Counted from the stretch's first letter, positions 5,118 through 44,682 are shown. The stretch is DNA of 64,000 nucleotides from Candidatus Moraniibacteriota bacterium (GCA_030645735.1 JAUSNP010000006.1:196095-260094); one strand, 5' to 3'. Translations and numbers: made by a program. The notes: a model not told the origin generated them from the sequence alone.

Positions 5118-5155
5118 CTTAAATTTAAATAAATATAACTAATTGACTAGAAAAT

Positions 5156-7606: not shown

Positions 7607-7640
7607 ATTGTAGAAAAAATCATTTACCTCATTTTAAAAT

Positions 7641-9893: not shown

Positions 9894-9908
9894 TGTGTTA
9901 CAAATTAT

Positions 9909-14055: not shown

Positions 14056-15375
14056 TTATTTTAATAGCCATTCATGTTTAATATCACAAAGGCCTCTATA
14101 TTTAGCTTTTAATCCTACTGCAAATATTTTTAATTCTTTATATTTTTGTTTCACATCATAGTAAATTTTTTCGCTATCGTCAAAGCAAGCAACGTTCAAA
14201 TAATAATCTCCTTTTAATATCGGCATACTATCAAAATGCAAAACGATATAGTCGCTCCTATTGCCAATTTCAAAATTATCCATCTGAGTATTATAACTAA
14301 AAATTCTTTCGTCTTTCTCAATTCCATAAAGGCCTATGCCAATATTAACACCATTAGCTTCCTTATTAATTTTATAATAAATTTTTATATCCACTGATTC
14401 ACCTGTTTCAAAAGCATTTTTTACTTTTCCGTCCTTATCCAAAAATTCAATGTTGGTTATTTCTGCGACTTTATTTTTTCTTTCTTCCTCCAATTTTATT
14501 TTTTCCAATTCGATTCTTTTCTTTTCAAATTCCAACTCCCGTCCCTTCATATTCTTCAGGTTTTTTTCCGCTTGAATGATTTTCTGTTTTTCAATTTCTT
14601 CCATTCGCCTTTCCTCATCTGACATATTTTCATAAACATAAGCATTGCCCACCTCTTCAGCCTTTCCAATTTTCACAATTTTTCCGTTGCGCAAAAGCAT
14701 TGCTCGATCACAATATCTCTGCACCGTGCCAGTATCGTGCGTCACTAAAATAACCGTTTTACCCATTTTCTTATAACGATTAAATTCCGTCAGACATTTA
14801 CTCTGAAAATTTGAATCTCCTACTGCCAATACCTCATCCATCAGCAAAATCTCACGATTAGCATGAATAGAAACTGAGAAAGCTAAACGCACTTGCATAC
14901 CAGAAGAATAATTTTTCAATTTTTGATCGATGAATCGTTCTAACTCTGAAAAAGCTACGATTGAATCAAATTTTTCATCAATCTGTTTTTTGGTCATTCC
15001 TAAGACAGTTGCATTTAGATATACATTATCTCGTCCAGAAAGCTCGGGATTGAAACCAATGCCCAATTCCAAAAATGGTGAAATCATGCCGTCTATTTCC
15101 ACTTTTCCTTTGTCGGCCTGATAGATGCCAGCCAAAACCTTCAAAAGTGTTGACTTACCTGAACCATTGCGACCAATGATACCAAAAAACTCACCTTTCT
15201 TCACTTCAAAAGAAACATCGTCCAATGCTTGAAATTCCTCAAAACCGCCACTCTTAAAAAGACCCGTGACCGCGCCACGCACAGAAGTCACCTTTTCATG
15301 AGGGATGCGGAAGGTTTTTGAGACATTTTTGACTGAAATAGCAATATCTTTATCCATTTTTCTATTGTACAACAT
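14056..15375 (-). CDS. wzt: polysaccharide ABC exporter ATP-binding protein Wzt/TagH-like with coiled-coil linker and C-terminal putative glycan-binding domain
   Basis: Walker A GRNGSGKST, signature SSGMQVRLAF, Walker B LLMDEVLAVGD; then Glu/Lys-rich coiled coil and ~150-aa beta-rich C-terminal domain. Confidence 0.8.
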   Translation of the reverse strand: MLYNRKMDKDIAISVKNVSKTFRIPHEKVTSVRGAVTGLFKSGGFEEFQALDDVSFEVKKGEFFGIIGRNGSGKSTLLKVLAGIYQADKGKVEIDGMISPFLELGIGFNPELSGRDNVYLNATVLGMTKKQIDEKFDSIVAFSELERFIDQKLKNYSSGMQVRLAFSVSIHANREILLMDEVLAVGDSNFQSKCLTEFNRYKKMGKTVILVTHDTGTVQRYCDRAMLLRNGKIVKIGKAEEVGNAYVYENMSDEERRMEEIEKQKIIQAEKNLKNMKGRELEFEKKRIELEKIKLEEERKNKVAEITNIEFLDKDGKVKNAFETGESVDIKIYYKINKEANGVNIGIGLYGIEKDERIFSYNTQMDNFEIGNRSDYIVLHFDSMPILKGDYYLNVACFDDSEKIYYDVKQKYKELKIFAVGLKAKYRGLCDIKHEWLLK

Positions 15376-15427
15376 TTTTTACCCCCTATCAAGCCGGGTT
15401 TTCAGATACTTTTTAACTTTATGGACT

Positions 15428-15457
15428 TTCGACTTTATGGACTTATCATGCTATAAT
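15428..15457 (+). promoter_or_regulatory. candidate promoter (-35-like CGACTT, 17-nt spacer, extended -10 TGcTATAAT) giving a near-leaderless transcript for the SpoIID-like gene
   Basis: atgcTATAAT at 15449-15457, ATG at 15470; preceded by two GACTTTATGGACTT repeats. Confidence 0.45.
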
Positions 15458-15469
15458 ACCAATGAAATT

Positions 15470-16846
15470 ATGAAAAAAATACATACAAAAATTATAATTA
15501 CTTTGGCGATTTTTGCGTTTTTGCTGTCTGCCAAAAGTGTCTCAGCAGCCGCATCCTGTTCTGCGATTTCAGTTGTTGGCGATTGGAATGGTGACGGGAA
15601 AACCAAGATCGGCATCTTTAGAAATGGCAATTGGTACTTAGATAGCGACGGGAATGGCAAACTTGAATATGATAAGGATATTATTGGAAAACTTGGCATG
15701 TTGTCTGGAGATGTTCCTATTGTTGGCGATTGGAATGGTGACGGGAAAACCAAGATCGGCATCTTTAGAAATGGCAATTGGTACTTAGATATAAATGGAG
15801 ATAGTCTGTGGGATGGTGGCTTAGTTGATATTCTTTCTCCCAATTTTGGAATTGAATTAGCATGCCCAGCAAATATTGGACCAGATATTTCTGTTGGACT
15901 TTGGAGCTATACTCGAGATGACATACGCTCAACTGGAGAACCTTTTAAGATCACTGCTAACAAGAACTATGTCATAAAAAAGGGTGACGGAACCATCATA
16001 GCCACTGTCATATCAACTCAGCAAACAAGAGCTATTTATGAAAGCGCTGGCAATCTGCAGGTCTATAGTACCGATGATGGCATTCCACTGACAAACATGG
16101 GTGATAGAATTATTTTTGAATCGGCAGACGGAAACAACACTGATATGATATTTGATGCCCATCGCCCATCAATTCCAACACCGGAATATAGCAACTACAA
16201 CCACTATCGCGGAAAAATAGAATTGCGCTACACGGATAATTCAAAAAACAATGCCATCTATGGAGATGGTGAGACTAAGCGTATCTGGGTAATCAACGAA
16301 CTGCCCCTCGAACACTACACTTGGGGCATGGCAGAGTTGAATCTTGCTAATGTGACCGAACATAATAAAGTGATGGTGAGCATTTTCAGAACTTACGGAA
16401 AAAGTAAAACAGAACTAATCACATATTACAACCAACTAGGTTTTGATTTGGTTTCAACTCCCTCCTCACAAAAATACAACGGCTATGACTATGAAATATC
16501 TCATCCCACGATAAAAAAGGCAGCTGAAGAAACCAGCGGTAAAATCATCACTTATCAAGGCAAGACTGCTCTCACGGCCTATTCCTCTTGGAGTGACGGA
16601 AGAACCAGAGCGCTAGATCTCAATCTCTATCCTTACCTGAAACCAGTTGATGATCCGTATGGCGACTACAATGGGGCTTATTGGAATAATGCCTACAAAA
16701 GTACCAGTGACCTTCTTGCTAGTGGAAATCACATGAAAGGTCTAATCGCGCATGGCTCCGTCACACTTGCCTATGACTTCCATTGGGATTGGCAAAGAAT
16801 TCTGAAATATTATTACACTGGGATAGGAATAACTTCGGCATATTAA
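15470..16846 (+). CDS. secreted SpoIID/LytB-domain protein with two N-terminal FG-GAP-like repeats
   Basis: Signal peptide MKKIHTKIIITLAIFAFLLSAKSVSAAAS; duplicated VVGDWNGDGKTKIGIFRNGNWYLD; C-term TYQGKTALTAYSSWSDGRTRAL..YPYLKPVDDPY resembles SpoIID motif (tYnGkpi.A.fhSsSgGrTe...PYLrsV.dP); the ORF-track start at 15305 is a spurious extension overlapping wzt. Confidence 0.6.
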   Translation: MKKIHTKIIITLAIFAFLLSAKSVSAAASCSAISVVGDWNGDGKTKIGIFRNGNWYLDSDGNGKLEYDKDIIGKLGMLSGDVPIVGDWNGDGKTKIGIFRNGNWYLDINGDSLWDGGLVDILSPNFGIELACPANIGPDISVGLWSYTRDDIRSTGEPFKITANKNYVIKKGDGTIIATVISTQQTRAIYESAGNLQVYSTDDGIPLTNMGDRIIFESADGNNTDMIFDAHRPSIPTPEYSNYNHYRGKIELRYTDNSKNNAIYGDGETKRIWVINELPLEHYTWGMAELNLANVTEHNKVMVSIFRTYGKSKTELITYYNQLGFDLVSTPSSQKYNGYDYEISHPTIKKAAEETSGKIITYQGKTALTAYSSWSDGRTRALDLNLYPYLKPVDDPYGDYNGAYWNNAYKSTSDLLASGNHMKGLIAHGSVTLAYDFHWDWQRILKYYYTGIGITSAY

Positions 16847-16852
16847 ATCTTT

Positions 16853-17398
16853 ATGAAAACATCTTCAAAAATTTTTAGCGTTCTGTTCCTAGGTGCTTTA
16901 ATTGTACTTGCCTATTTTGCCTTTCCCATCATAAAACAGCGTTATTTTACAGATGAGCCGGTCACGCCCGTGAAAATTAATATCTCCACGGATGATTCAA
17001 CCGCAACAGAAAACACTAATCCCAATGATCAGGCAAGTCCAGAGATTTCCGATGACACTGAACAAACAGATGGATCTATCCCAGTTGAGCAAATAGATGT
17101 TTTCAAAACTATCACCAAGCAAGATTGTCTAAATGAATGCTCCGCGTTCAAAAGCACTTCCGACAAAGAATATTGCCTACAAGTCTGCAGTTCATCCTCC
17201 TCTACTGAAAATAACACTCAATGTTCTGAGAAATCCGGATTGCAAAAAGACTATTGCCACAAAACTCTTGGTATTACAAACAAAGATTTCGAAGAATGCA
17301 AAAAAATAACCGACAAAAACATACAAGAATCATGCATAAACACAGTCACTGATAAAATTCTTGAGCGGAGCGATTCAACGGAAGATCGAAATCCCTAA
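16853..17398 (+). CDS. small secreted/membrane-anchored cysteine-rich hypothetical protein
   Basis: N-terminal hydrophobic anchor, Ser/Thr/Asp-rich linker, 10 Cys in C-terminal 90 aa; 7 nt downstream of the SpoIID-like gene. Confidence 0.45.
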   Translation: MKTSSKIFSVLFLGALIVLAYFAFPIIKQRYFTDEPVTPVKINISTDDSTATENTNPNDQASPEISDDTEQTDGSIPVEQIDVFKTITKQDCLNECSAFKSTSDKEYCLQVCSSSSSTENNTQCSEKSGLQKDYCHKTLGITNKDFEECKKITDKNIQESCINTVTDKILERSDSTEDRNP

Positions 17399-17506
17399 AA
17401 ATGGCTGTTATTATCCCACTTGGCCAAAACCGCATCCTCGAAGACTCACTTGAAAACCAACCAAAATCCAACACGCTAGATTTCTAACCTCGCAAAAAAC
17501 TTTCCA

Positions 17507-17536
17507 CAAAAAAACGGAGTCGAACTCCGATTTTTT
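17507..17536. terminator. bidirectional rho-independent terminator
   Basis: A-run, CGGAGT-cgaa-CTCCG hairpin, T6. Confidence 0.65.
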
Positions 17537-17541
17537 GTGTA

Positions 17542-18579
17542 TTATTGCAACTTACTTAATTCGTAATATTTTTGCTTAAGCGTAATTGAAATTTTTCTGA
17601 GATATTCTGATGTGGCATGCGCTTCATCTTCCGGATTTATTTTAGTATTTTTATATTTTTTCAATACCTCTGCATAAATTTTTTCAATTTCATCGACTGC
17701 CTTTTGAATACTGACAATTGATCGAATTTTTTTGGTCAGCTCAGCAGAATCAGCCGCGGCATATTTGTTTATTTCCTCATAAATCAATTCAGAATCTACT
17801 TCAGCATACATAGTTGATGTTCCGAAATTGAAATTATACAATCTTTCTACATTGTCTGCTGTAACCATTGGGCCAATGCCGTGCTCATTGCAAATCACCA
17901 CCGCAGCTCCAACAGCCAAAGCTTCAATAGCGCTTCTGCCGACTGCAAAAACCAAATCATAATTTACCAGCACCTCTTCCGGCTTATCAGTCTGATTGCC
18001 CGTAGCTAAACCAACAACATCCAAATCAATTCCAGCTCTGTCGCAAGCCTTGCGAACCAATGAGACATAATTATTTTCACCAGCGCGATTGTTGAAAATC
18101 AAAGCTTTTTTAGGTTTTTCCGGCAAAGACTCCCGCTGTTTGAAACGCTCCAAATCTACAAAATTATGCACCAAACGAATATCATTTTCCGGCACATGAT
18201 GTTCCTCAATAGATTTTTTCAAAGTCAACAAATCAACTATTGCATATTCCATGATTCTCGGATGAAGTGGCGGAGTTTCCTGCCAAGGCCTCCAGCCATG
18301 GCAAAAATATACAACTGGAACACCTGGAAAATACGTCAGAGCTGTCATAGTGTCCAAATGATGTTGTCCATGAATAATGTCAGGCCTCCAAGAAAGTTTT
18401 GCTAAATCATCAACTGTCTGGATTCCCTCTTGATTCATAATCTCACCCAAGGCGCCCACAAATGTGCTATAGGCAGCCACGGTGTGCCCGCGACGCATCA
18501 ATTCTTCAGCCACCTCTCTGACATACAACTCACTTCCAGTGCGCTTAGTTAGATTGTTGTTGGTTATCAAGATCTTCAT
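17542..18579 (-). CDS. glycosyltransferase family 1 (GT4)-like
   Basis: MKILITNNNLTKRTGSELYVREVAEELMRRGHTV N-terminal GT-B start; ATG at 18579 preferred over upstream TTG at 18618. Confidence 0.6.
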   Translation of the reverse strand: MKILITNNNLTKRTGSELYVREVAEELMRRGHTVAAYSTFVGALGEIMNQEGIQTVDDLAKLSWRPDIIHGQHHLDTMTALTYFPGVPVVYFCHGWRPWQETPPLHPRIMEYAIVDLLTLKKSIEEHHVPENDIRLVHNFVDLERFKQRESLPEKPKKALIFNNRAGENNYVSLVRKACDRAGIDLDVVGLATGNQTDKPEEVLVNYDLVFAVGRSAIEALAVGAAVVICNEHGIGPMVTADNVERLYNFNFGTSTMYAEVDSELIYEEINKYAAADSAELTKKIRSIVSIQKAVDEIEKIYAEVLKKYKNTKINPEDEAHATSEYLRKISITLKQKYYELSKLQ

Positions 18580-18630
18580 AATATTCCAATCATAGCATAT
18601 TTTCACCGAATTGTTCAAAAATCCTCAAAT

Positions 18631-18666
18631 TCTGTAGGGGTTCTGTAGGGGTTTCCCTCCTACAGA
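18631..18666. repeat. REP palindromic element copy 1 (partial half-copy + full imperfect copy)
   Basis: tCTGTAGGGG + tCTGTAGGGGTTTCCctCCTACAGa immediately 3' of the RAYT stop codon. Confidence 0.8.
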
Positions 18667-19305
18667 TCACTCTTCCAGCAAATATCTTCTCATCTCACTT
18701 CTGCGTTGATTTATTTCTTTCGCGTTTATATCAACAAATTCACTATAATCACTCCTGTCTTTAAATTGACTTAAAATAATTTCTGAATTACATAATTTTT
18801 CAACACTATCATCCAAGTAGTTTTTCAAACTTGATCTAAATTCTCTTGAATTATGAATAATATTGTTGCCATTAACATAAGCTGACAGGTACAATAAATA
18901 TTCATTGCTATTTACATGCACAGCCTTGAATCTTCCTTGAAATAATGAACCACTTCTTTTGTTCCTGTGATTAAAATATCCTGTATAGCCACCGCTAATG
19001 CGTTTCATAAATTCAGATATACCGCCATCTCTCAACTGTTTTAATATGAAATGAAAATGATTTGGAAGTAAATTATAGGCAATTATCTCAACCAATGCAT
19101 CATTCTGTAGGGGTTTCACCCCTACAGAGTTTGTTTTACTTTTTATATATAAACTAATGACTGGCTCAATTTGATTAAATTCTCTTATTGATTTAAGAAA
19201 TCTTGAATAATCATATTTGTCCAAAAAAATATCTCGCTTCTCCACTCCGCGATTAAATATATGATAATATTCTCCATTTACAAACTCAAAAGAAAAATTT
19301 CCCAT
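18667..19305 (-). CDS. IS200/IS605-family Y1 (HuH) transposase, REP-associated tyrosine transposase (RAYT)-like, carrying an in-frame REP insertion
   Basis: N-term EYYHIFNRGVEKRDIF (YHV..RG..IF motif), HuH motif NHFHFIL, Tyr-containing helix YLLYLSAYVNGN; residues SVGVKPLQ are encoded by REP copy 2. Confidence 0.7.
   Translation of the reverse strand: MGNFSFEFVNGEYYHIFNRGVEKRDIFLDKYDYSRFLKSIREFNQIEPVISLYIKSKTNSVGVKPLQNDALVEIIAYNLLPNHFHFILKQLRDGGISEFMKRISGGYTGYFNHRNKRSGSLFQGRFKAVHVNSNEYLLYLSAYVNGNNIIHNSREFRSSLKNYLDDSVEKLCNSEIILSQFKDRSDYSEFVDINAKEINQRRSEMRRYLLEE
19105..19127. repeat. REP palindromic element copy 2 (inside RAYT ORF, in frame)
   Basis: CTGTAGGGGTTTCACCCCTACAG perfect 9-bp arms, 5-nt loop. 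Confidence 0.85.
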
Positions 19306-19327
19306 CTTTTTTGTTTTATTTTTATAT

Positions 19328-19349
19328 CTGTAGGGGTGAAACCCCTACG
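19328..19349. repeat. REP palindromic element copy 3 (degenerate right arm)
   Basis: CTGTAGGGGTGAAACCCCTACg followed by ttaCCCacac. Confidence 0.75.
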
Positions 19350-19372
19350 TTACCCACACATTATTATTTTTT

Positions 19373-19786
19373 TTAAAAACTCGTGAAAATTATAAATACC
19401 AGCCAAGCAAAAAGCAATGTCAAAACCAATAGCCCAACCAACCATATGATTAGAAAAAGAAACGCTGTTCTATTTAGCCAGATATGCTCTTTTAGAAATT
19501 TTGGCTTGTAATTTTTAAATCCCTTCCACAATCCCCCTGCAATGAAAATTGTATCTATTACAGGCCAAACAATGAGTATTATAAATCTAACAATACTATT
19601 GCGGGAAAAGTTAGTAGTTGAAGTCAACAACACAGATGCAACTAGAATATTAAATGCTATTGAACCCCACATAATCAAAGCCAACTTTCGCATGAAAACA
19701 AAAAGCAAAGCATTGGATATTGCGAACAAAACAAGCGCCAAAATCATAATATTGACCGTAAACTGATCCGGCCCTATATCACTCAT
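19373..19786 (-). CDS. small polytopic membrane protein (4 TM), hypothetical
   Basis: 137 aa, four hydrophobic segments; second gene downstream of the LCAT-like lipase gene on the same strand. Confidence 0.4.
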   Translation of the reverse strand: MSDIGPDQFTVNIMILALVLFAISNALLFVFMRKLALIMWGSIAFNILVASVLLTSTTNFSRNSIVRFIILIVWPVIDTIFIAGGLWKGFKNYKPKFLKEHIWLNRTAFLFLIIWLVGLLVLTLLFAWLVFIIFTSF

Positions 19787-19847
19787 ATTTTTACACTTAA
19801 TAATTAAACAAGTTAATCAAGCCTTATTTACTTTTTATTTCCTATAT

Positions 19848-19883
19848 CCGTAGGGGTTTCACCCCTACATTACCCCTACATTA
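19848..19883. repeat. REP palindromic element copy 4 (with duplicated right arm)
   Basis: CcGTAGGGGTTTCACCCCTACAttaCCCCTACAtta. Confidence 0.8.
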
Positions 19884-20291
19884 TTTCTTACTTTTATAAA
19901 CCGACATGATTTTGACTAGGGAGGTTACGATGAAGACGGCGTAGAAAATGCCAATTATCAGCATGTTGAAACTGCTGGATATAGCACCGCTGATGCCCAT
20001 GCCACCACTTCGGCCTTGAGAGTTGATCAAGAAAGTGACCAGCATAATCACCGGCACAAACCAGCGGGCAAATCTCCACCAAGCCTGAAAAACTTCGTCA
20101 CGCATTTTGTAGGTGATGAGAGAGAGGAGAAAAACAAACGGAAGAGGAGAAAAAGGATATACAATAAAACCAAAAGTTTCCTTACAAATACCCCGATATG
20201 CTCCGCAAAAATTATATAGAAGCGCGAGCAATAAAAACACAAATGCTCCCCCTGCTATCCCACTTATCCATAATACACTTTTTTTGCTCAT
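19881..20291 (-). CDS. small polytopic membrane protein (4 TM), hypothetical
   Basis: 136 aa, four hydrophobic segments; immediately downstream (18 nt) of the LCAT-like lipase gene. Confidence 0.4.
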   Translation of the reverse strand: MSKKSVLWISGIAGGAFVFLLLALLYNFCGAYRGICKETFGFIVYPFSPLPFVFLLSLITYKMRDEVFQAWWRFARWFVPVIMLVTFLINSQGRSGGMGISGAISSSFNMLIIGIFYAVFIVTSLVKIMSVYKSKK

Positions 20292-20308
20292 ATTTTTTAA
20301 TAAAAGAA

Positions 20309-23300
20309 TTAATACTTAATTTCGACTATGCCTTGTTTGGTTGTTAGCTCAGGAACAATCAACCCTACCAACTTCTGTTTGATTGCTCGCCTATCAGCAT
20401 CATCGTCATCATCCCTGTCATCATGCAATTCTTGCGGTCTAGTCATAATCATTGTGACATTTTGCTTTGGTCGATAGTGTGATTCGATGGCACTAGAAGA
20501 TGTGCGCAGATTAGTGGCGAACATCGAATATGTCGCGCCCTTTCTATTTAAGCTCCAGTTGTACTTTGCCATTGTATCATGAAGCTTGGTCACCACGCCA
20601 TTATAGCTAATTGAATTTAGCTCAACAGCCACCCTGCGATCATGGCTTACGAATTTTTCTGTATATTTGAGAATTGTGACATTTCCTGCTTGATCAGTGA
20701 TTGTGGCTGTGGTCATTTTGCCAACATATCTCTCATTTTCTCTTTCTCTGTCGCTATACTTTGAATTCTTTTTGGATATTGCGGAGGTGACATAAGTCAC
20801 TGTGGTTGGATTTTCGTCAATGCCTTCAACTCTCATTGAATTGGTCTGAGTGTCAAAAAATATTCTGGCTTCTGGCGGGGTTTGATCTGCTGTGGGTTGC
20901 ATGACTGTTTCGCCGACTTTCGGTTGCAAAGAAAAATCAATGACGCTGTTTCCATCAAAGTCCACTGCCAATGGTGAGGCATTTTGAATTGTCCCATCAA
21001 TCACTTCCATAGTAACCTTGGCCTTGTCAGAAGAAGGAACTCCGGCAAAAGTTGTTTTGGCCACCACCGCGTCATTTTCCACCTCTTGCATCTCCAAGGT
21101 AAATGAACCTTCGGCCAAGCCGTCCAGCGTCACTGTGTGCGCCACAGAGGCTGACAAAGAGATGAATTGCACTTCGCCAAAGCGTTTGTATATTGCCCCA
21201 GGAATGGTCGAAACTGAAGCACTGATTTCATTGCCAGAGGTGTCATGAGCTGACAGTGCCAAAGGTGAATGCAAGATATAATGCAAACGCTTTTCGGAAC
21301 TATTTGATGGTTTTGAATCTGAAATAAATTGAGGAAAAGATGTTGATGATTGAGTTAAAATATTATCTTTAATAAAACTTCGTAATTCTGAAACTTCTAG
21401 AATATCCGCATGCTCTATGCTTCTGACAACGGGAATATTATAATCATCCAAATCTACCCAATACCTCTTCACATTTTCATTTGCACTCATCGCCAACGCA
21501 CTTGGCGCCACCACTGTACCATCGCCATCAATCACTGTGTCCGGAGTATATTGAATCTTGTCCCGATATGCGAGACATTTGCCTTCAAACACCTCCGAAC
21601 ATTCGATGCCTGTCCAATATTTGATTGTTCCAAGCGTCTCTTCGCCAAAACCAGCGATTTGATAAACAGAAATTGATGCTGGCACTGTCCAATTGTCATC
21701 TAGTGCTTGATGCACATCTTCAGCATTACCTAACAGTTTTGCATTGATTGAACTTGGACTGACAACATCATTTGAATCAGCTGAAACTTTTCTTTCAGAA
21801 TCCAAAAGGAAATCATGCAATTCAGTTGGGTTGTCGATTTCATTGCCATATTTATTGATGAAAGATTGCGTAAGTGATCCATTTTCAAATGAAATCATTG
21901 GTGTGCTCGTTGAACTGCCATTTCCATTGAAATATGCGCTTGATGGCAAAAGATTGTATGCGCTTGGCATGTTATTAGCTAATGTTCGAGCAACTTTTGG
22001 AGCAAGCAGCAAGGGAAACCAATCTGCAGGCAAGCCTTGATCATAGCCATGCAAGATTCCACCAATTGCTTGTGGCGTTCCGACTTGTGGCACGGCCACC
22101 ATAACAATCTTGTCAATCAGACTCTCAGCCTCTGCTCCCAATTTGTTGGTCAACGCTTTTGCCAACAGCCCACCATTGGAATGCGCTACGATGGTCACTT
22201 TGCCAGTTTTGGAAGTTTCCGCCAATCGTCTCAACTCACGCACAATGTATGGCGAGATTGACGCTTGGGTATAAGAAATATTTTTCCCATCAAATGTTCC
22301 AGAAGTCAAAATATCTTCCAGTGACAATCGCCAATCATATGGCATAGCCACATAATCATTGATAATTTTGTCATCATTTTTCCATTTTTCCAAATCAGCC
22401 TTAAATGAATTGTAAATATTTTTTTGCCCAATGAGTGGCGATACATTCACCTCATCCAAAACATCTCTTGTATAAACATCTGGATCTAGACTTTTGCCGT
22501 TTTTATCTAGAAATAATTTTTCCACATCCGCATCGCGATTAGGTTCCCAAAGTTGATTCTCTGTTCCAATCACTCCATCAGTATACAACCGACTCGCCTC
22601 CAATCCTGGCAAGAAAAGGACGTTGGATGCGCCACTGGCTGTTACTGATGGCACAGAATTTTCAATTTCTGTGGCGCTCCAACTTTCTGAAGTATAGTCG
22701 CCAATTAGTTTTTCTCCGCCTACATTTGGCGCGGATTCAATTTCAGGTCCGGCTGGATCGCCGTACCAATTGCTTTTCAAAAGAACTTTGGTTTTGTCAT
22801 GAAAGCTCGGGTCACTGCCTGCGACATTGGTGCAATATCCACCACAAATCGGACCATAGATTCCATAGTCATCTGGATAATTCAGCTTGCACTCATTGAA
22901 ACAGTTTTCAAAAAGTGCATTATATACATCTGGCTTTGTGACTTTGGCTGTGACAGCCGTGTCTTGAGAATTGTTTTGGAAATTGGAGTTTTCTATGAAC
23001 AAATAACTTTGTGAATTCCATTCGCCATATTCCGTCTCAACTTTTATATCCGCATAGGCATTGTTTTTGAAATCACAGTTGCTCATTTTCACTCGGCCTG
23101 AATAGAGGGTCATAGCTGGAGCAGCCTCATTCACAGGCGCCGCGTAGGCTACTGGAAAAAACATATCCTTGAGGCCGTTATTCATTCCCAAGCCAGGACA
23201 GCTGTCCGTGTCATAGGAAAATTCATCACCCATCTGAGAAAATTCGACAAATTCAAAAATAGATTCTGGATCGTCCACATAATCCCCTGGGGCGCTGAAT

Positions 23301-23686
23301 TCAATCGTGGCGGTTGGCGACATAAAACAACGCGGATTATATGCTCCGCCCTCTTCAAAAGTCAGTGGGATTCCAGCCAATTTGATTTTTTCTTCTTTGG
23401 TGCCTTGAGCAATGACATTTCCACTGATGGACAAGTGACGAAAAGCTAATTGCGTTCCTTTTTCAATAGTCAAAGTCACGCCCCAATTGACATAAATGTT
23501 TCCATAGTTAGATAAATCCGTACTATTGTTCCAAGTGGTGTTTTCACTGATATACAAATCTTCCAATGGCAAAACTTCGCCAGCTACAATATTTTTCGAC
23601 AAAGCCATGAGATCAATCCGCAAAGGACTGATGGCAAAGATAACGATAAAAATTATGACACCCATGTTTTTGATTGTCTTGTGCAT
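20309..23686 (-). CDS. large secreted multidomain protein with LCAT/PGAP1-like alpha/beta-hydrolase (lipase/acyltransferase) domain
   Basis: N-terminal signal/anchor MGVIIFIVIFAISPL; central PYDWRLS motif (LCAT-family hallmark) followed by lipase nucleophile elbow VTIVAHSNGG (A-H-S-x-G as in Bacillus LipA); N-terminal region with beta-helix-like NxxN repeats; acidic DDRDDDDDADRR near C-terminus. Confidence 0.6.
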   Translation of the reverse strand: MHKTIKNMGVIIFIVIFAISPLRIDLMALSKNIVAGEVLPLEDLYISENTTWNNSTDLSNYGNIYVNWGVTLTIEKGTQLAFRHLSISGNVIAQGTKEEKIKLAGIPLTFEEGGAYNPRCFMSPTATIEFSAPGDYVDDPESIFEFVEFSQMGDEFSYDTDSCPGLGMNNGLKDMFFPVAYAAPVNEAAPAMTLYSGRVKMSNCDFKNNAYADIKVETEYGEWNSQSYLFIENSNFQNNSQDTAVTAKVTKPDVYNALFENCFNECKLNYPDDYGIYGPICGGYCTNVAGSDPSFHDKTKVLLKSNWYGDPAGPEIESAPNVGGEKLIGDYTSESWSATEIENSVPSVTASGASNVLFLPGLEASRLYTDGVIGTENQLWEPNRDADVEKLFLDKNGKSLDPDVYTRDVLDEVNVSPLIGQKNIYNSFKADLEKWKNDDKIINDYVAMPYDWRLSLEDILTSGTFDGKNISYTQASISPYIVRELRRLAETSKTGKVTIVAHSNGGLLAKALTNKLGAEAESLIDKIVMVAVPQVGTPQAIGGILHGYDQGLPADWFPLLLAPKVARTLANNMPSAYNLLPSSAYFNGNGSSTSTPMISFENGSLTQSFINKYGNEIDNPTELHDFLLDSERKVSADSNDVVSPSSINAKLLGNAEDVHQALDDNWTVPASISVYQIAGFGEETLGTIKYWTGIECSEVFEGKCLAYRDKIQYTPDTVIDGDGTVVAPSALAMSANENVKRYWVDLDDYNIPVVRSIEHADILEVSELRSFIKDNILTQSSTSFPQFISDSKPSNSSEKRLHYILHSPLALSAHDTSGNEISASVSTIPGAIYKRFGEVQFISLSASVAHTVTLDGLAEGSFTLEMQEVENDAVVAKTTFAGVPSSDKAKVTMEVIDGTIQNASPLAVDFDGNSVIDFSLQPKVGETVMQPTADQTPPEARIFFDTQTNSMRVEGIDENPTTVTYVTSAISKKNSKYSDRERENERYVGKMTTATITDQAGNVTILKYTEKFVSHDRRVAVELNSISYNGVVTKLHDTMAKYNWSLNRKGATYSMFATNLRTSSSAIESHYRPKQNVTMIMTRPQELHDDRDDDDDADRRAIKQKLVGLIVPELTTKQGIVEIKY

Positions 23687-23846
23687 GTTTTTGTTTGTTT
23701 TTTATTTTTTTAGATATTAAAAAACCACGGAGTTACCCGCGGTCGATTGGCATAAAAATATCGCACAACACAAAAGCTCTCAGATATCCTGAAAAATTTC
23801 TAGCGACTATCACAGTGCGTCTTGTATTTTTGTTTTTCACACCTAA

Positions 23847-23875
23847 ATTATACTAGATGCTCATTATTTTGACAA
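23847..23875 (-). promoter_or_regulatory. sigma70-type promoter for the LCAT-like gene (minus strand: TTGTCA-17nt-TATAAT) embedded in palindrome TTGACAaggTGTCAA
   Basis: plus-strand attata 23847-23852 (= TATAAT on minus), 17-nt spacer, tgacaa 23870-23875 (= TTGTCA); palindromic 15-mer 23869-23883. Confidence 0.5.
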
Positions 23876-23924
23876 GGTGTCAAGAATTCATCATGACCCA
23901 AAGTTATCCACAGCCCATCTGATT

Positions 23925-23947
23925 CTGTAGGGGTGAAACCCCTACAG
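23925..23947. repeat. REP palindromic element copy 5
   Basis: CTGTAGGGGTGAAACCCCTACAG perfect, immediately 3' of the wzm stop. Confidence 0.85.
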
Positions 23948-23949
23948 AG

Positions 23950-24774
23950 CTAGATGTCCTCCGCGATCCGTGGAGCCATTTTTCGGTAGGACCAGATGCT
24001 GAAGGCGAAAGCGCCGAGCACGATGGAGATAAAGGCAGTGTATTGAGTGGAGCTGGCGAAGTGATTATTAATCAAAGATTCTTTGGTGAAGTGGATGATG
24101 AAGGCCAAAGGATTGAGCAGAATCAATGTGTGATATTTAACTGGCAAAGTTACTAAAGGATAGATGATGGGTGAAGCATACATGATGATCATGAGAAGCA
24201 CTTCCCAAATCATGGAAAGGTCACGGAATTTCACGTAGAGTGGTGCCGTTATCAGAGCAAAAGACAGGATTATAATATAAATGAAAACTGAGAACAGCAG
24301 AAATACGCCAATGGCAGCAAGACTTGGCATGAAACCCTTGAGAGCGAAAAAGAAAACAATCACGACTAGATTCATTAGGAATATCAAGGTGGCGTTGATA
24401 GTGGAAGCCAAAATGATGGTCCAACGCGGAACATAAATTTTGGTCACCAATTGTGATTTGCTCAACAGCGAATTCATGCCGGCACCGGTACCCTCAGCAA
24501 AAAAATAGAACATCATCAAAGAAACCAAAAGTTGCAAAGAATAGGTATCTGTTCCATCGACATTTCTTAGATTGAAAACTGAAGAGAAAACAAAATTCAA
24601 AATCGCAAAAGTCAAAAGCGGTTTCAAAAGCGCCCATAAATAGCCCAAAACACTGCCATGATAGCGCAGTTTGAAATCGGTTTTGGCTAGCATCCAAATT
24701 AGCTCTTTGTAATTCTCATGTTGTCTCATATAGAAGTCCATAAAGTCCGTAAAGCTTAAAGTCCATAAAGCCAT
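23950..24774 (-). CDS. wzm: polysaccharide ABC exporter permease (ABC-2 family) Wzm/TagG-like
   Basis: YKELIWMLAKTDFKLRYHGSVLGYLWALLKPLL ABC-2 signature start, 6 TM; first ~14 codons overlap the decamer repeat array so true start may be at a downstream Met. Confidence 0.8.
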   Translation of the reverse strand: MALWTLSFTDFMDFYMRQHENYKELIWMLAKTDFKLRYHGSVLGYLWALLKPLLTFAILNFVFSSVFNLRNVDGTDTYSLQLLVSLMMFYFFAEGTGAGMNSLLSKSQLVTKIYVPRWTIILASTINATLIFLMNLVVIVFFFALKGFMPSLAAIGVFLLFSVFIYIIILSFALITAPLYVKFRDLSMIWEVLLMIIMYASPIIYPLVTLPVKYHTLILLNPLAFIIHFTKESLINNHFASSTQYTAFISIVLGAFAFSIWSYRKMAPRIAEDI

Positions 24775-24833
24775 CGGTCTTATTTTTTAATACAGTTCAA
24801 AAGCTTAAGGTCCGAAAGCTATTGGTCTAGCTT
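24733..24833. repeat. phased AAAGTCC / GGACTTT decamer array (imperfect large palindrome) B
   Basis: AAGTCCATAAAGTCCGTAAAGCTTAAAGTCCATAAAG...AAGGTCCGAAAGC. Confidence 0.7.
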
Positions 24834-25178
24834 TTTGATAAAACCAGAAAGCATCTTAGAAATTTCAAATGATAAATTATATAATCTTGTGAATTCCTCC
24901 TCTTTAATATAGCCTAGATCCAAAGATAGATAAAGCATGGAACGAACCTCGCCACACGAGCCCTTGGCAATAAATAAAAAGTGTTTAAATTCTTTATCAC
25001 CTTTTCTCTCAAACCCCTCAGCGATATTGTTCATCACCGAAACTGCCGCTCTTTGAATTTGGTCTCTAAAAGAAAAGTCCCTATTCAATTTAAAAATATT
25101 ATAGATATCCAAAGTGAGCATGCGCGACTTTTGCCAAGCAATAATATCCTCAAATTTTTCTATTTTTATATTTTGCAT
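24819..25178 (-). CDS. four-helix-bundle protein (TIGR02436 / 23S rRNA intervening-sequence protein family; Avd-like fold)
   Basis: AWQKSRMLTLDIYNI...FRDQIQRAAVSVMNNIAEGFERKGDKEFKHFLFIAKGSCGEV matches the family consensus. Confidence 0.8.
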   Translation of the reverse strand: MQNIKIEKFEDIIAWQKSRMLTLDIYNIFKLNRDFSFRDQIQRAAVSVMNNIAEGFERKGDKEFKHFLFIAKGSCGEVRSMLYLSLDLGYIKEEEFTRLYNLSFEISKMLSGFIKKLDQ

Positions 25179-25182
25179 TGAT

Positions 25183-25222
25183 AGACTTTATGAACCTTAT
25201 GGACTTGATGGACTTTTGACTG
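25183..25222. repeat. decamer array C
   Basis: GACTTTATGAACCTTATGGACTTGATGGACTTTTGAC. Confidence 0.6.
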
Positions 25223-25224
25223 TC

Positions 25225-26298
25225 TTATACATTATCCATTGTTTTGTACCACTCTGGCATCATTTGAAAGACTTCAACTTGCCTTCTAACACCTTCTTCC
25301 ATATTCATTTTTGGCTCATAGCCTAGCATCTCCCTGGCCTTGCTAATATCAGCCGAAGAAACTACATCTCCTTTGTCACTTTCTACTAGTTTATATTTCA
25401 CCGGAGTACCCAAAACCTTGCCAATGATATCCAGCCAAAGTCTGATCGGCTGCGGATCAGATGTTCCAATATTGAACACATCAAATTTCGTCTTGTGATC
25501 TAGGAGTAATAACAAACCATCTACCTGATCATCGATATAAGTGCTGTCTTTAGCTGTGTCTAATCCCTTGCTACCATAAATAGAAATTTCTTTCCCATTG
25601 TAGGCAAAATTGATGGCGCGTTGCATGAACATGCCATACATTCTTTGCAATGGTCCATAAATTGGTCCGAAAATTCGGTCCACACACACATCCAATCCAT
25701 ATACCACCGAAGCTGCGTGGCACAAAACCTCTCCGGAAACTTTCGTGGCGCCATAAGGAGAAACGGCATGCATCACATCATCAGTTTCTGAAACTTTTTT
25801 GTCATCGCGATTGCCATAGACCGATGAAGATCCACCGAATACAAATTTCTTGGTGCCAAAATTTCGGCAGGCATCCAGCAAGGTCACCGTTCCCACCACA
25901 TTAACATTGGCATAGGTCACTGGTTTTTGTACTGACATCGGCACGCCACCCCAAGCCGCCAAATGAATGACAGCATCAATGCCTTCAGTCCTAAACATTT
26001 CATTCACCTTTTCCGCATCCGTAATGTCCATTTCATAGAATTTGAAGCTTCCAAGCTTGCCAGTTGGTTTCGGATAGTAACTTTCCATCTTTTCAAAAAC
26101 ATTTTGGATTTCATCCAATGGAGTTTCAATCGGCAAGCCAGCTAAAATATTTATCAAATCAACATTAAATTGCTTGCAGCGTCTTGGATAATATTCGTTG
26201 AAATTGTCGATACCCACTACATCATCTCCACGGCGAATCAATGCTCGTGAAACATAGTTGCCGATAAAACCTGCTGCACCCGTGACTAATACTTTCAT
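25225..26298 (-). CDS. NAD-dependent nucleotide-sugar epimerase (UDP-glucuronate/UDP-hexose 4-epimerase-like)
   Basis: MKVLVTGAAGFIGNYVSRALIRRGDDVVGIDNFNEYY Rossmann/extended SDR start, YGATK catalytic motif; ~55-aa insertion after the first beta-alpha unit. Confidence 0.75.
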   Translation of the reverse strand: MKVLVTGAAGFIGNYVSRALIRRGDDVVGIDNFNEYYPRRCKQFNVDLINILAGLPIETPLDEIQNVFEKMESYYPKPTGKLGSFKFYEMDITDAEKVNEMFRTEGIDAVIHLAAWGGVPMSVQKPVTYANVNVVGTVTLLDACRNFGTKKFVFGGSSSVYGNRDDKKVSETDDVMHAVSPYGATKVSGEVLCHAASVVYGLDVCVDRIFGPIYGPLQRMYGMFMQRAINFAYNGKEISIYGSKGLDTAKDSTYIDDQVDGLLLLLDHKTKFDVFNIGTSDPQPIRLWLDIIGKVLGTPVKYKLVESDKGDVVSSADISKAREMLGYEPKMNMEEGVRRQVEVFQMMPEWYKTMDNV

Positions 26299-26307
26299 AT
26301 AAATTTT

Positions 26308-26392
26308 AGTTCATAAAGTTCGTAAAGTTAAAGGTTCGTAAAGTGTCGACTTTAAAAAACCTTATAAACTTGATGAACTTTATAACTTCGAT
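26308..26392. repeat. decamer array D (palindromic: AAAGTTC arm / GAACTTT arm)
   Basis: AGTTCATAAAGTTCGTAAAGTTAAAGGTTCGTAAAGTGTCGACTTT...CTTGATGAACTTTATAACTTCG. Confidence 0.7.
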
Positions 26393-27567
26393 CTTAAATA
26401 ATTATAATATTCTTCGTTATGACTATTTTTGTTGGTGTATTTTTCTATGGTTTTTTCTTGAGCTTTTTTGCCAATTTCTTCTCGAAGATTAGCATCGACA
26501 ACCAACTTTTCCAATTTTTCAACCCATTCAGCCGTTGTTTTTGCTACATAGCCGTCAATTCCATCAGCGATAGCCTCAGAAAATGTCTGGTTGGCCACGG
26601 CCACGGTCGGCACACCTAGAATTCCAGCTTCAAAAAATTTCAATTCCGATTTGGCTTCACAAAATGGATCACCTGGTTCAAGTGGAGCTAGATTGATATC
26701 CACTTTGCTAATATTTTCCAAGTGTTTCTCCCAAGGCGCCAAGGGAAATTGTTCAATTCGATCTTGAAATTTGTTCAGAGCATTTTCAACTTCCAGTGGC
26801 CCCACCAATACAAGTCTGACTTGCGGATATTTCTCCATAATTATCATCAACGCCTCCGTGATTGTAGCAAAATCTTTATTGTGGCTCATTGTGCCAGAAA
26901 AATAACCTATGCGTATCTTTTTTTGGTTTTTGGTTTTTGGTTTTTGGTTTTTATGAATATTTTCTGCCACAGTCACATCATATTCGGTGAGTTTATTGGG
27001 CACAATAAAAACCTTCTTGCCATAACTTTCCAAAACTTTCGCCAAATAGGTTGTCGTGGTGGTGCAAACTTTTACATAATCATCCCTCAAAATTTCTTCG
27101 CCCACACCTTTTGCATATTGTTTCTTTTCAAAGAAACTCATTTTTTTATACATATCTGTGGCGTGCATATATTTCGTATCAAAAACCAAATCATCTGTTT
27201 CAAAGATAATTTCCTTGCCTTGTTTTTTCACTCGCTCCAACAATTTCTTGACGGTCGGGGTGACGAGGGTGCGATGAAAAACAAAAACCTTAAACTTACT
27301 GGCAAACAATGCCAGAAATGGATTGTCTTGAATCATCACTTCAGCCTTGATGCCATGAAAATTCAATTCCTCGGCAACTTTGTAGGCTCGATATTTCGCG
27401 CTATCACCTACACCGCCTGTAATAAACAACACATCGCCAGATTTAAAAGTGGATATTGTTTTCAAAAATGTTGCAAAATAATTCAACACGCGACGACCGC
27501 CTACCAGGATTCCATCTCTTCTAATCGCAGTAAAGGCCTTGCCGATTTTGATTAAAAATAAATTCAT
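26380..27567 (-). CDS. glycosyltransferase family 1 (GT4) carrying an in-frame (CCAAAAA)4 heptamer tract
   Basis: GT4 C-terminal LAPLEPGDPFCEAKSELKFFEAGILGVPTVAV; heptamer tract at 26918-26952 encodes KNQKPKTKNQKK; ATG at 27567 preferred (MNLFLIKIGKAF). Confidence 0.75.
   Translation of the reverse strand: MNLFLIKIGKAFTAIRRDGILVGGRRVLNYFATFLKTISTFKSGDVLFITGGVGDSAKYRAYKVAEELNFHGIKAEVMIQDNPFLALFASKFKVFVFHRTLVTPTVKKLLERVKKQGKEIIFETDDLVFDTKYMHATDMYKKMSFFEKKQYAKGVGEEILRDDYVKVCTTTTTYLAKVLESYGKKVFIVPNKLTEYDVTVAENIHKNQKPKTKNQKKIRIGYFSGTMSHNKDFATITEALMIIMEKYPQVRLVLVGPLEVENALNKFQDRIEQFPLAPWEKHLENISKVDINLAPLEPGDPFCEAKSELKFFEAGILGVPTVAVANQTFSEAIADGIDGYVAKTTAEWVEKLEKLVVDANLREEIGKKAQEKTIEKYTNKNSHNEEYYNYLRSKL
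26918..26952. repeat. heptanucleotide tandem repeat (TTTTTGG)4 inside coding sequence
   Basis: GG dinucleotides at 26925, 26932, 26939, 26946 with period 7. Confidence 0.85.
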
Positions 27568-27576
27568 AAAAATTTT

Positions 27577-27670
27577 AGTCCGTAAAGTCTGAAAGTTCTT
27601 AAAGTCGAAAGCTAACAATGCTTTATGGACTTTATGAACTTTATGGACTTTTGGACTTAGTCGACTTTTA
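27577..27670. repeat. decamer array E (palindromic)
   Basis: AGTCCGTAAAGTCTGAAAGTTCTTAAAGTCGAAAGC-taacaatg-CTTTATGGACTTTATGAACTTTATGGACTTTTGGACTTAGTCGACTTT. Confidence 0.75.
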
Positions 27671-28843: not shown

Positions 28844-28935
28844 AAAGTTTATAAAATTCTTAAAGTTTATACGGTCAAAAGAGTACGGAATCCAACACTT
28901 TACGAACTTGGTGGACTTTATGAACTTTTGACTCT
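28841..28935. repeat. decamer array F
   Basis: CATAAAGTTTATAAAATTCTTAAAGTTTATACGGTCAAAAG...CTTTACGAACTTGGTGGACTTTATGAACTTTTGACTC. Confidence 0.65.
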
Positions 28936-28965
28936 GCCAACTAATTCTACCCCATAAATTCTCGT

Positions 28966-44572: not shown

Positions 44573-44659
44573 ATTATTTGAAAAATTATGATAATTTACT
44601 CGATTACATAGCTTAGCACTCCGCCCAAAAAAGTCAATAGGCAAACCCACCAAACATTC

Positions 44660-44682
44660 CTGTAGGGGTTTCACCCCTACAG
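44660..44682. repeat. REP palindromic element copy 6
   Basis: CTGTAGGGGTTTCACCCCTACAG perfect. Confidence 0.85.

Follow-up and report, generated by a model that had tools for sequence, protein, structure and literature searches.

In the Wzm/Wzt loci for O-antigen and the TagGH/TarGH loci for wall teichoic acid, an ABC-2 permease and an ATPase with a carbohydrate-binding C-terminus are encoded amid sugar-nucleotide and glycosyltransferase (GT) genes, and adjacent or overlapping transporter genes are usual, though not strictly defining, for such exporters. In the mycobacterial wzt-glfT1-wzm operon, non-adjacent transporter genes form one transporter (PMC13018209). The mosaic K and O loci of cultured bacteria (PMC6249986) join a conserved export/assembly end to a low-GC serotype end, with nearest relatives that differ from gene to gene. 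In the REPtron of E. coli (YafM, PDB 4ER8), a transposase of the HUH/Y1 fold is flanked by a GTAG-headed palindrome, the repetitive extragenic palindrome (REP), which is also dispersed in intergenic 3' regions (PMC3733652). Each of these arrangements has a counterpart in the 64,000-nt stretch analysed here (the window), which comes from the genome of a Candidatus Moraniibacteriota bacterium (GCA_030645735.1, JAUSNP010000006.1:196095-260094). Here wzm and wzt, both on the minus strand, are 8,574 nt apart from wzt start to wzm stop, and between them, on mixed strands, lie a SpoIID-like gene, a gene for a Cys-rich protein, a GT4 gene, a gene for a REP-associated tyrosine transposase (RAYT), two genes for small membrane proteins and an LCAT-like gene.

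We consider it probable that the border between wzm and wzt is a long-standing, phylum-wide plasticity zone that was later colonised by REPs and the RAYT, rather than the site of a recent repeat-driven insertion. A previous, sequence-only reading of this DNA had proposed a REP-mediated insertion hotspot within a core export operon. Much of its description is borne out, including the same-strand gap of about 8.5 kb, the five of six REPs that fall inside the interval and the REP 1 nt from the wzm stop. Pfam supports its assignments for wzt, wzm, SpoIID-like, GT4, RAYT and LCAT-like genes, and the translations those of the Cys-rich protein and of the hydrophobic 136- and 137-aa proteins. The wzm gene, placed at 23950-24774, was correctly recognised, and only its start had to be moved, to 24729, since the homologues are 258-259 aa long. 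The junction is indeed a hotspot of insertion or rearrangement; delivery by REPs is the part that lacks support, as the modules recur in REP-less genomes.

The wzm-wzt junction across Moranbacteria

The window has a G+C content of about 39% and its Wzm is 100% identical to the NCBI protein of a Candidatus Moranbacteria metagenome-assembled genome (MAG), within the Patescibacteria or candidate phyla radiation (CPR). According to Pfam, a surface-glycan locus runs continuously across about 1.9-43.4 kb and comprises glycosyltransferases, an acyltransferase, a pyruvyl transferase, FnlA/CapE-like, RmlD-like, 2-epimerase and RmlABCD-type genes, and genes for large membrane proteins. We compared 80 species-representative Moranbacteria loci around wzm, with 10-kb flanks (individual loci and contigs carry L numbers below), onto which all window proteins were mapped; their Wzm proteins are 59-91% identical to that of the window. 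Of the 52 informative loci, 19 have wzm and wzt adjacent or overlapping (-14 to +118 nt), 4 have them separated by 0.4-0.6 kb, another 19 have them separated by 1.8-9.7 kb, and 10 have no wzt within 8 kb or more of wzm. The pair is split in 33 of these 52 species, including all the nearest relatives, so that separation is the majority state and not a peculiarity of this genome. The premise of normally adjacent genes nevertheless has a basis: the 19 species with adjacent genes are spread over every deep clade of the Wzm tree (midpoint-rooted, neighbour-joining) and, because of this distribution, adjacency is likely to be the ancestral state.

Adjacent genes are limited to relatives with Wzm identity of 82% or less, and the relatives at 88% or more are all split, in other ways. 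In L008 (91% Wzm identity), wzm is followed by housekeeping genes. In L010 (90%), the genes after wzm are the LCAT-like gene, one for a small transmembrane (TM) protein and, farther on, a RAYT, with no wzt in 10 kb. In L009 (90%), the order is wzm, REP, a gene for a 390-aa protein, REP-RAYT-REP, small TM and LCAT-like genes, and wzt lies 9.6 kb off. A further contig, L168, whose RAYT fragment NCBI assigns to the source genome of L008 (GW2011_GWA2_39_41), carries an LCAT-like gene, a small TM gene, a 390-aa zinc-ribbon gene and a REP-RAYT block beside rpmF, nusB, rnc and smc, away from wzm. The closest relatives, already split, have diverged by dS 0.8-1.3 and, because wzm of the closest relative differs by dS of about 0.8, the split is old.

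Both borders of the interval can be found in genomes that lack REPs. In L035, L040, L043, L061 and L073, the Cys-rich and SpoIID-like genes come immediately after wzm, on the other strand, and diverge from wzt; they also immediately follow wzm in L062 and L065, whose contigs stop short of any wzt, and are nearby in L027, L030, L041, L052 and L054. The LCAT-like gene and its 136-aa homologue directly follow wzm in L010, L011, L032, L019, L020, L017, L023 and L031, and precede it in L040, L043, L016 and L025. Among the module-bearing relatives, a REP or RAYT is present in the locus solely in L009 and L010. The REP at the wzm-LCAT junction of the window is a later arrival, since the same junction is REP-free in L010, L011 and L032. 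Relatives with the same gene order and no REPs, which the previous reading had named as evidence against itself, thus exist for sub-blocks of the interval, although not for the interval as a whole.

The interval was not acquired as one piece, because its parts have several different nearest relatives. Whereas wzm and the genes GT434, P613, P447 and P134 are closest to L008 (87-91% aa identity), the LCAT-like and 136-aa genes have their nearest relatives in L043 (65% and 56% aa; 69.6% nt across 3.9 kb), at dS 1.0-1.4, with the wzm dS against L043 saturated. Wzt is closest to L040 (74%) and L023 (73%), and Epi357 to L035 (69%). Nucleotide homology to the relatives ends in all cases exactly at the wzm stop codon and the REP at 23924.

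Base composition does not set the interval apart. Breaks had been anticipated at both borders; in terms of G+C at third codon positions (GC3), there is none at 23.9 kb, the interval genes having values of 0.35-0.46, except for RAYT (0.244), against a window mean of 0.387 (sd 0.068). The break that is present near 15.4 kb reflects the low GC of wzt (0.311) and of the genes at 3-11 kb (0.26-0.31). The low-GC3 block, 3036-11009 together with 14056-15375, encodes GT2, acyltransferase, FrhB-pyruvyl transferase, GT2+GT1 and methyltransferase proteins, and Wzt. The genes downstream of wzt have orthologues in none of the 80 related loci, and those upstream of wzm are widely conserved across them. The low-GC block is probably the exchangeable, serotype-type half of the locus, and the wzm-wzt junction is thus the border between a conserved and a hypervariable half; such a position would explain the build-up of recombination end-points and extra DNA there.

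These observations bear directly on the proposal that a contiguous wzm-wzt pair was recently split by one 8.5-kb insertion, mobilised or targeted by REPs and the RAYT and carrying secreted, effector-like cargo. The clustering of five of the six REPs in the interval, one of them at the wzm stop, speaks for this proposal, as do the REPs that bracket the LCAT-136-aa cassette, the orphan 137-aa gene and the RAYT, the differing gene order around the RAYT in the window, L009, L010 and L168, and the existence of adjacent wzm-wzt in other Moranbacteria. However, both the wzm-LCAT and the SpoIID-wzt junctions exist in REP-less genomes, the parts of the interval have several different nearest relatives, the interval has typical GC3 without a break at 23.9 kb, and the closest relatives, at the divergence given above, are already split. 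The borders show no hallmarks of an island: no terminal repeats or target-site duplication, no tRNA and no integrase domain were detected there, and the sole repeat common to both is a generic 9-bp array found in 11 other intergenic regions. Moreover, RAYTs are generally known to act on REPs of about 20-40 nt or on REPINs, not on kilobase cargo. We therefore regard a single REP-driven insertion as improbable.

Under the plasticity-zone model that we favour, a conserved half made up of sugar-nucleotide genes, GT genes and genes for large membrane proteins would end in wzm, and a hypervariable low-GC half would begin with wzt, whose C-terminal domain would read the polymer end, and continue with serotype-type sugar and transferase genes. 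Many lineages would have lodged recurrent envelope-protein modules in or beside the border, and recombination would have swapped these modules between lineages. The interval of the window would then be a composite of (i) the SpoIID-like and Cys-rich genes, an old divergent neighbour of wzt, (ii) the LCAT-like gene with the gene for the 136-aa membrane protein, a cassette whose nearest relative is found in a distant lineage, (iii) the GT4 gene and (iv) the REP-RAYT-REP unit with the orphan membrane gene. The REP/RAYT system would be a resident of the sub-clade, whose REPs secondarily colonised nearby intergenic junctions, including the wzm 3' end, the cargo not having been delivered by the element; the REP hairpin at the wzm 3' end probably acts as an mRNA 3' structure. 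In terms of expression, wzm would close the conserved transcription block, wzt with its own promoter region would head the variable operon, and the proteins would assemble after translation. The model builds on what was observed of the genes present, the placement of the REPs, the spectrum of synteny, base composition, purifying selection and the mosaic origin of the parts, and would further entail ancestral adjacency, stepwise assembly by recombination, separate promoters and a continued Wzm-Wzt partnership.

Several points weigh against this model. The informative sample is 52 loci; the other 28 of the 80 are too short to classify, 17 of them with at least 2 kb free of wzt. The polarity rests on a midpoint-rooted neighbour-joining tree of Wzm, not on a species tree, and Wzm itself could be exchanged. 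Because all relatives at 88% Wzm identity or more are split, there is no close relative with an empty site, and the order of events in the lineage of the window could not be reconstructed. Promoter calls over the whole set (42, against a shuffled expectation of 36.1 +/- 5.4) show no excess and, since they are no more numerous than expected from shuffling, the promoter-like sites mentioned here are leads only. The inspection covered 64 kb of the genome, which bears on the continued partnership discussed below. Finally, REPs stand at all four module junctions between wzm and the GT4 gene, and the gene order around the RAYT differs in four of the four REP-bearing loci compared (window, L009, L010 and L168); because of these two facts, a contribution of REPs to local reshuffling of the interval in this sub-clade is possible, and we retain it as a secondary reading.

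Exchange at this junction can also be seen between strains. Of the contigs with identical Wzm (P0038), L006 has wzt directly, and L005 and L007 (about 16200-19450) have a different wzt, preceded by an insert with a 194-aa ABC fragment, MBOAT and AlgX. This is a strain-level exchange of cassettes at the same junction, and the zone is still variable.

The exporter pair and the intervening genes

Both exporter subunits are readily identified. Wzm scores well above the Pfam cut-off for an ABC-2 type permease subunit (PF01061, 26.9 bits), and its 2,617 homologues carry source names of polysaccharide or polyol-phosphate export permeases. In the translation of wzt, the Walker A (GRNGSGKST), signature (YSSGMQ) and Walker B (ILLMDE) motifs are seen, and residues 297-417 match Wzt_C (PF14524, cut-off 30.4 bits). 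The best NCBIfam matches of wzt are TagH and teichoic-acid export ATPases, under their cut-offs. The Wzt proteins of many relatives align over the nucleotide-binding domain (NBD) alone (coverage 0.54-0.62), so the C-terminal domain is variable. Such NBD-only alignments agree with a variable carbohydrate-binding domain. Against relatives, dN/dS is 0.03-0.07 for wzm and 0.07-0.085 for wzt; both genes are under strong purifying selection, with intact open reading frames (ORFs) and complete motifs.

On the assumption made here, Wzm and Wzt of this genome still function as partners in one exporter of an undecaprenyl-linked polymer. The alternative, that they are relics or are now paired with subunits encoded elsewhere, draws on the 10 species without wzt within 8 kb or more of wzm, on the seemingly fragmented wzt of L045 and L049 and on the extent of the inspection noted above. 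Nevertheless, the low dN/dS of two intact, motif-complete genes speaks against it; both belong to the same glycan locus, and no second ABC-2 permease or Wzt-like ATPase was found elsewhere in the 64-kb window. We hold a lost partnership to be very improbable. In L045 (10779-11488) and L049 (11535-14627), wzt appears to be broken into several frames or fragments, by pseudogenisation or sequencing error.

Downstream, wzt leads a low-GC run of eleven co-directional, tightly packed genes (15375 down to 1884, spacers 4-38 nt). The genes upstream of wzt are on the opposite strand and a bidirectional terminator-like hairpin lies beyond them (17515-17529); from this arrangement we infer that transcription of wzt has to begin within the divergent region of 94 nt (15376-15469). 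This region holds candidate promoters on the plus strand (TCGACT-17-TATAAT with TG, 15429-15457) and on the minus strand (TTGATA-17-TACAAT, 15392-15364).

A 23S-rRNA-IVS/four-helix-bundle (IVP) gene lies at 24819-25178; it is also present directly beside wzm or wzt in L009, L022, L028, L032 and L044, and in L044 it is placed between the two. We considered this gene as the Avd of a diversity-generating retroelement and rejected it, as neither a reverse transcriptase domain nor a template/variable repeat pair lies nearby.

Turning to the intervening genes, the SpoIID-like protein can be assigned by domain to the SpoIID/LytB family (PF08486, cut-off 23 bits; PDB 4rwr SpoIID, E=6.7e-8); TIGR02669 reaches 52 bits, under its cut-off of 83. 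Its gene most likely starts at 15470 and not within wzt. A 72-nt stretch is doubled within it at 100% identity (15573-15644 and 15720-15791, 147 nt apart), encoding the VGDWNGDGKTKIGIFRNGNWYLD repeat, which suggests recent duplication or conversion. The 181-aa Cys-rich protein has no Pfam or NCBIfam match; its gene is the constant partner of the SpoIID-like gene, the two occurring together in 12-13 species loci. The nearest homologues of the GT4 protein (58% in L071, 54% in L060) are encoded downstream of wzt or wzm there. For the 137-aa protein no homologue was found in any of the 80 species loci, its one marginal match being a 94-aa protein beside the RAYT of L009; we rejected the idea that it is a duplicate or paralogue of the 136-aa protein, to which it has no similarity. 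Homologues of the latter follow the LCAT-like gene in L043 (56%), L010, L032, L022, L017, L009 and L025.

The LCAT-like protein can likewise be placed by domain among the LCAT-like alpha/beta-hydrolases (PF02450, residues 424-763, 55 bits with the cut-off at 21), and its AHSNG motif was taken as the counterpart of the GxSxG nucleophile. Its relatives combine Beta_helix and LCAT domains, and a sequence comparison with PDB gave no match. The nearest homologue, 65% identical over the full length, is encoded upstream of wzm in L043. The leader of this gene (minus strand, 23723-23875) has the best promoter-like site of the interval (TTGTCA-17-TATAAT, 11 of 12 matches), followed about 100 nt on, just upstream of the start codon, by a GC-rich hairpin and T-run that may serve as leader or attenuator. 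We rejected a conserved riboswitch or attenuator, given no Rfam match and no alignment among the wzm-LCAT spacers of relatives.

The cargo proteins, called effector-like in the previous reading, belong to the envelope or are secreted, which is what one expects next to a cell-surface glycan locus. Under an alternative of selected co-localisation, which partly overlaps the plasticity-zone model, the LCAT-like/136-aa and SpoIID-like/Cys-rich modules would be accessories of glycan export, and the split would be an extended operon. The recurrence of the modules beside wzm or wzt in several Wzm clades and varied orders (LCAT module in roughly 17-20 species, SpoIID module in 12-13) fits this idea, as do the uniformly envelope or secreted nature of the module proteins and the resemblance of the Wzt NBD to TagH. 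SpoIID-family enzymes act on peptidoglycan, to which wall-polymer export is coupled. On the other hand, in most genomes whose wzm and wzt are adjacent neither module occurs within 10 kb, the LCAT block of the closest relative sits beside smc and rnc, and the modules occupy both strands with their own promoter-like and terminator-like signals; furthermore, the linkage was sampled from wzm-centred, not LCAT-centred, loci. Selected co-localisation seems to us unlikely but worth keeping in view, and we give the same low credence to particular roles, for example in wall remodelling or in acyl and lipid handling for the exported polymer.

The feature order (Table 1) is unlikely to be an artefact of binning or scaffolding, because a Logan contig, assembled from one sequencing run whose reads may also be those behind the MAG, is 100% identical to the window over 15762-29181. 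That contig covers all five interval REPs and all junctions except SpoIID-wzt, and this last junction is conserved in five other species. MAG contigs can mis-join at repeats, and REPs and 9-bp arrays are present here; at 25 nt, however, the REPs are presumably shorter than typical assembly k-mers. A chimeric contig joined at repeats is thus, in our judgement, hardly credible.

The split between wzm and wzt is an ordinary, if instructive, feature of Moranbacteria glycan loci. For the annotation of CPR genomes, an "orphan" wzm or wzt is not to be read as loss of the pathway. The pairs of LCAT-like and small membrane protein, and of SpoIID-like and Cys-rich protein, travel with the exporter and are candidates for a part in episymbiont surface biology.

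Table 1. Coordinates of genes, repeats and signals in and around the wzt-wzm interval (window positions)
Feature	Position	Strand	Description
wzt	14056..15375	-	ABC ATPase with C-terminal Wzt_C carbohydrate-binding domain; Pfam ABC_tran (PF00005) 78.8 bits, Wzt_C 65.6 bits
wzt-SpoIID-like intergenic region, divergent	15376..15469	.	promoter-like sites in both directions; 9-bp periodic array 15400-15444
SpoIID-like	15470..16846	+	signal peptide, two GDWNGDG-type repeats, SpoIID/LytB domain; Pfam SpoIID 30.4 bits
Cys-rich protein, 181 aa	16853..17398	+	N-terminal membrane/signal hydrophobic segment, 8 Cys
Terminator-like hairpin, bidirectional	17515..17529	.	between convergent Cys-rich and GT4 genes; CGGAGTCGAACTCCG then T runs, both strands
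GT4-family glycosyltransferase	17542..18618	-	Pfam Glyco_transf_4 40.7 bits
REP, slightly degenerate	18642..18664	.	3 nt past RAYT stop; downstream flank of RAYT unit
RAYT-like HUH/Y1 tyrosine transposase, 212 aa	18667..19305	-	Pfam Y1_Tnp (PF01797) 33.8 bits, cut-off 23
REP, intragenic	19104..19126	.	in frame within RAYT reading frame; encodes S60-Q67 (SVGVKPLQ)
REP	19327..19349	.	22 nt before RAYT start; upstream flank of RAYT unit
Multi-pass membrane protein, 137 aa	19373..19786	-	orphan; REP on either side
REP, dispersed	19847..19869	.	between the two small membrane-protein genes
Membrane protein, 136 aa	19881..20291	-	constant partner downstream of LCAT-like gene
LCAT-like alpha/beta-hydrolase, 1125 aa, secreted	20309..23686	-	signal peptide, beta-helix-like N-terminal region, AHSNG nucleophile elbow, long C-terminal extension
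LCAT-like leader/promoter region	23687..23923	-	promoter-like site 23875-23847; hairpin and T-run 23744-23723
REP	23924..23948	.	1 nt past wzm stop codon
wzm, ABC-2 permease, 259 aa	23950..24729	-	Pfam ABC2_membrane 52.4 bits; last gene of conserved half
9-bp periodic array (GGACTTTAN)n	24734..24764	.	immediately upstream of wzm start
REP, sixth copy	44659..44681	.	intergenic; 20 kb outside interval

A second repeat family consists of head-to-tail arrays of 2-4 units of 9 bp (GGACTTTAT / ATAAAGTCC) in either orientation, with 12 arrays in the window against 0.6 in shuffles. Besides those upstream of wzt (15400-15444) and of wzm (24734-24764), arrays lie at 25178-25221, 26307-26337, 27592-27663, 28899-28931, 30814-30893, 32623-32707, 42809-42841 and 49937-49969. 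With few exceptions, among them one that overlaps the start of the long GT434 ORF call, they occupy intergenic regions, often a few nt from a start codon; at 32623-32694, two of them make up a 28-nt inverted repeat between convergent genes. Apart from a few in L008, L009, L024 and L027, the arrays are largely confined to this genome. Two interpretations were rejected. The inverted repeat I13 (15417-15444 / 24743-24770) does not mark the ends of an inversion or insertion sequence, because inverting the segment would restore no operon and the repeat is the generic 9-bp array of about 11 intergenic regions. Neither are the arrays DnaA boxes of an origin, as they are scattered over 35 kb, with no skew inflection in 8-30 kb. 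Among RNA elements, a SAM riboswitch (RF00162, 50 bits) lies at 581-706, upstream of the S-adenosylmethionine synthetase gene (768-1814); within 13.9-25.4 kb, no Rfam family was found, even at E values up to 1, and no tRNA.

REP palindromes and the RAYT-like transposase

The REP of the window (CTGTAGGGGTTTCACCCCTACAG) is a 25-nt perfect palindrome, TCTGTAGGGGTTTCACCCCTACAGA. Six copies of GTAGGGGTKWMACCCCTAC are present against 0.02 expected, a number reached in 0 of 100 shuffles. Three of the five copies in the interval belong to the REP-RAYT-REP unit, in which the RAYT gene is flanked on both sides by the GTAG-headed palindrome (CTGTAGGGG...), 22 nt upstream and 3 nt downstream; the same layout is found in L009 and L010. 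Set against the single RAYT gene, three dispersed REPs occur in the 64 kb (19847, 23924 and 44659), and the first two of these are inverted relative to each other and bracket the LCAT-136-aa cassette. The window REP is restricted to relatives that have a RAYT, and L009 also has a REP about 20 nt past its wzm stop. The REP-bounded unit (18641-19352) is 87% identical at the nucleotide level to that of L009, above the value for wzm (77%).

The transposase scores 31.6 bits against the NCBIfam model REP_Tyr_transpos (NF047646), under the cut-off of 80, and is best described as a distant, "RAYT-like" branch of the family. It has the HUH motif NHFHF and the conserved Tyr helix, with H83, H85 and Y143 invariant in the alignment. 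Its AlphaFold (AF2) model (predicted local distance difference test, pLDDT, 85; predicted template-modelling score, pTM, 0.83) has as its top Foldseek match in PDB 4ER8 (E=2.3e-7), the E. coli REP-associated tyrosine transposase (TnpA_REP) bound to a REP hairpin, followed by the TnpA proteins of IS608 and ISDra2. In 80 metagenomic loci of RAYT homologues, no linkage to wzm, LCAT-like genes or glycan loci was found; because of this, the presence of a RAYT in the interval is a feature of the sub-clade only, and a general link between the RAYT family and glycan loci was rejected.

One REP lies within the RAYT gene itself. The residues that it encodes (S60-Q67) lie in the sole disordered internal loop of the model (pLDDT below 50 at residues 51-65), just before the HUH strand, and this REP is conserved in L009, L010 and L168. 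In L168 (9433-9867), the RAYT is truncated at about 140 codons, with slight decay of the intragenic REP. The RAYT family comprises 5,611 detected homologues, mostly from Patescibacteria, and in 77 metagenomic homologues of 43-55% identity we surveyed perfect hairpins with stems of at least 8 nt by their position relative to the HUH codon. Four positions stand out: about -300 nt, just before the start codon (66 of the 77 homologues); about -90 nt, intragenic site 1, in the loop ahead of the HUH strand (46/77); about +180 to +210 nt, intragenic site 2, in the loop that follows the catalytic-Tyr helix (36/77); and about +390 to +420 nt, directly past the stop codon (54/77). Elsewhere in these genes hairpins are almost absent.

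The hairpin sequences vary among loci (ACTTGGGGGTGAAACCCCCAAGT, TTCCTAAAACTCGGTTTTAGGAA and, in the window, CTGTAGGGGTGAAACCCCTACAG), and the intragenic sequence equals the flanking one in 35 of 49 loci. All ten stem pairs have changed on both sides, a diversity that is informative, although the percentage paired is not, the alignment having been pre-selected for hairpins. Some homologues without a hairpin retain the encoded peptide (LGGETPKS-like), the palindrome having decayed. These patterns indicate concerted evolution of the intragenic and flanking REPs. That the intragenic REPs of this Patescibacteria-wide RAYT family are functional cis elements and not neutral in-frame insertions we propose only tentatively, judging it somewhat short of an even chance. 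Possible roles include self-recognition or autoregulation by the RAYT on its own DNA or mRNA; alternatively, the internal copy might be a protected "master copy" through which enzyme and substrate are inherited together and continue to co-evolve. In L132, two RAYT genes (2940-3654 and 4404-5118) lie about 750 nt apart, each with a different long palindrome at site 1 (a REP dimer).

Intragenic REPs in general are already known (PMC3733652); REPs within RAYT genes were not found described in term searches of that paper, of Quentin et al. 2018 or of Bertels et al. 2017, and a limited full-text literature search returned no paper on RAYTs in Patescibacteria, which is no proof of novelty. A RAYT family that embeds its own REP would be a natural experiment on the co-evolution of REP and transposase, and a testable handle on the role of RAYTs. 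This side result could matter more than the wzm-wzt split, and the architecture merits follow-up.

Comparison with described systems

Compared with the Wzm/Wzt and TagGH/TarGH loci, the transporter genes here are separated by 8.6 kb that hold seven unrelated genes, distributed over both strands, and in Moranbacteria as a group the split is commoner than the adjacent state. The difference from the mycobacterial wzt-glfT1-wzm arrangement is one of degree and kind: there, one pathway gene intervenes within one operon, whereas here there are several transcription units on mixed strands and a mobile-element gene. The likeness to K and O loci extends to the division into two halves; in contrast to those loci, the variable zone lies inside the transporter gene pair, and it is filled by genes for envelope proteins, not by sugar genes.

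With respect to the REPtron, the position of the REP at wzm follows the usual pattern, REPs being placed mostly within 20 bp of the 3' end of the upstream ORF according to Di Nocera et al. 2013 (PMC3733652). The RAYT of the window departs from the REPtron in its score below the NCBIfam cut-off, in a low REP density (3 dispersed copies per 64 kb) and in carrying its own REP in frame at fixed positions. For this last trait the closest parallels (PMC3733652) are the palindromic elements of Rickettsia (RPEs) and the intragenic GTAG/CGTC REPs, which are likewise short palindromes in frame in permissive protein loops, the loop here being a disordered one. Unlike in those cases, the palindrome sits in the RAYT gene itself, at a site conserved across a family of over 5,000 proteins, and its sequence changes together with the flanking REPs.

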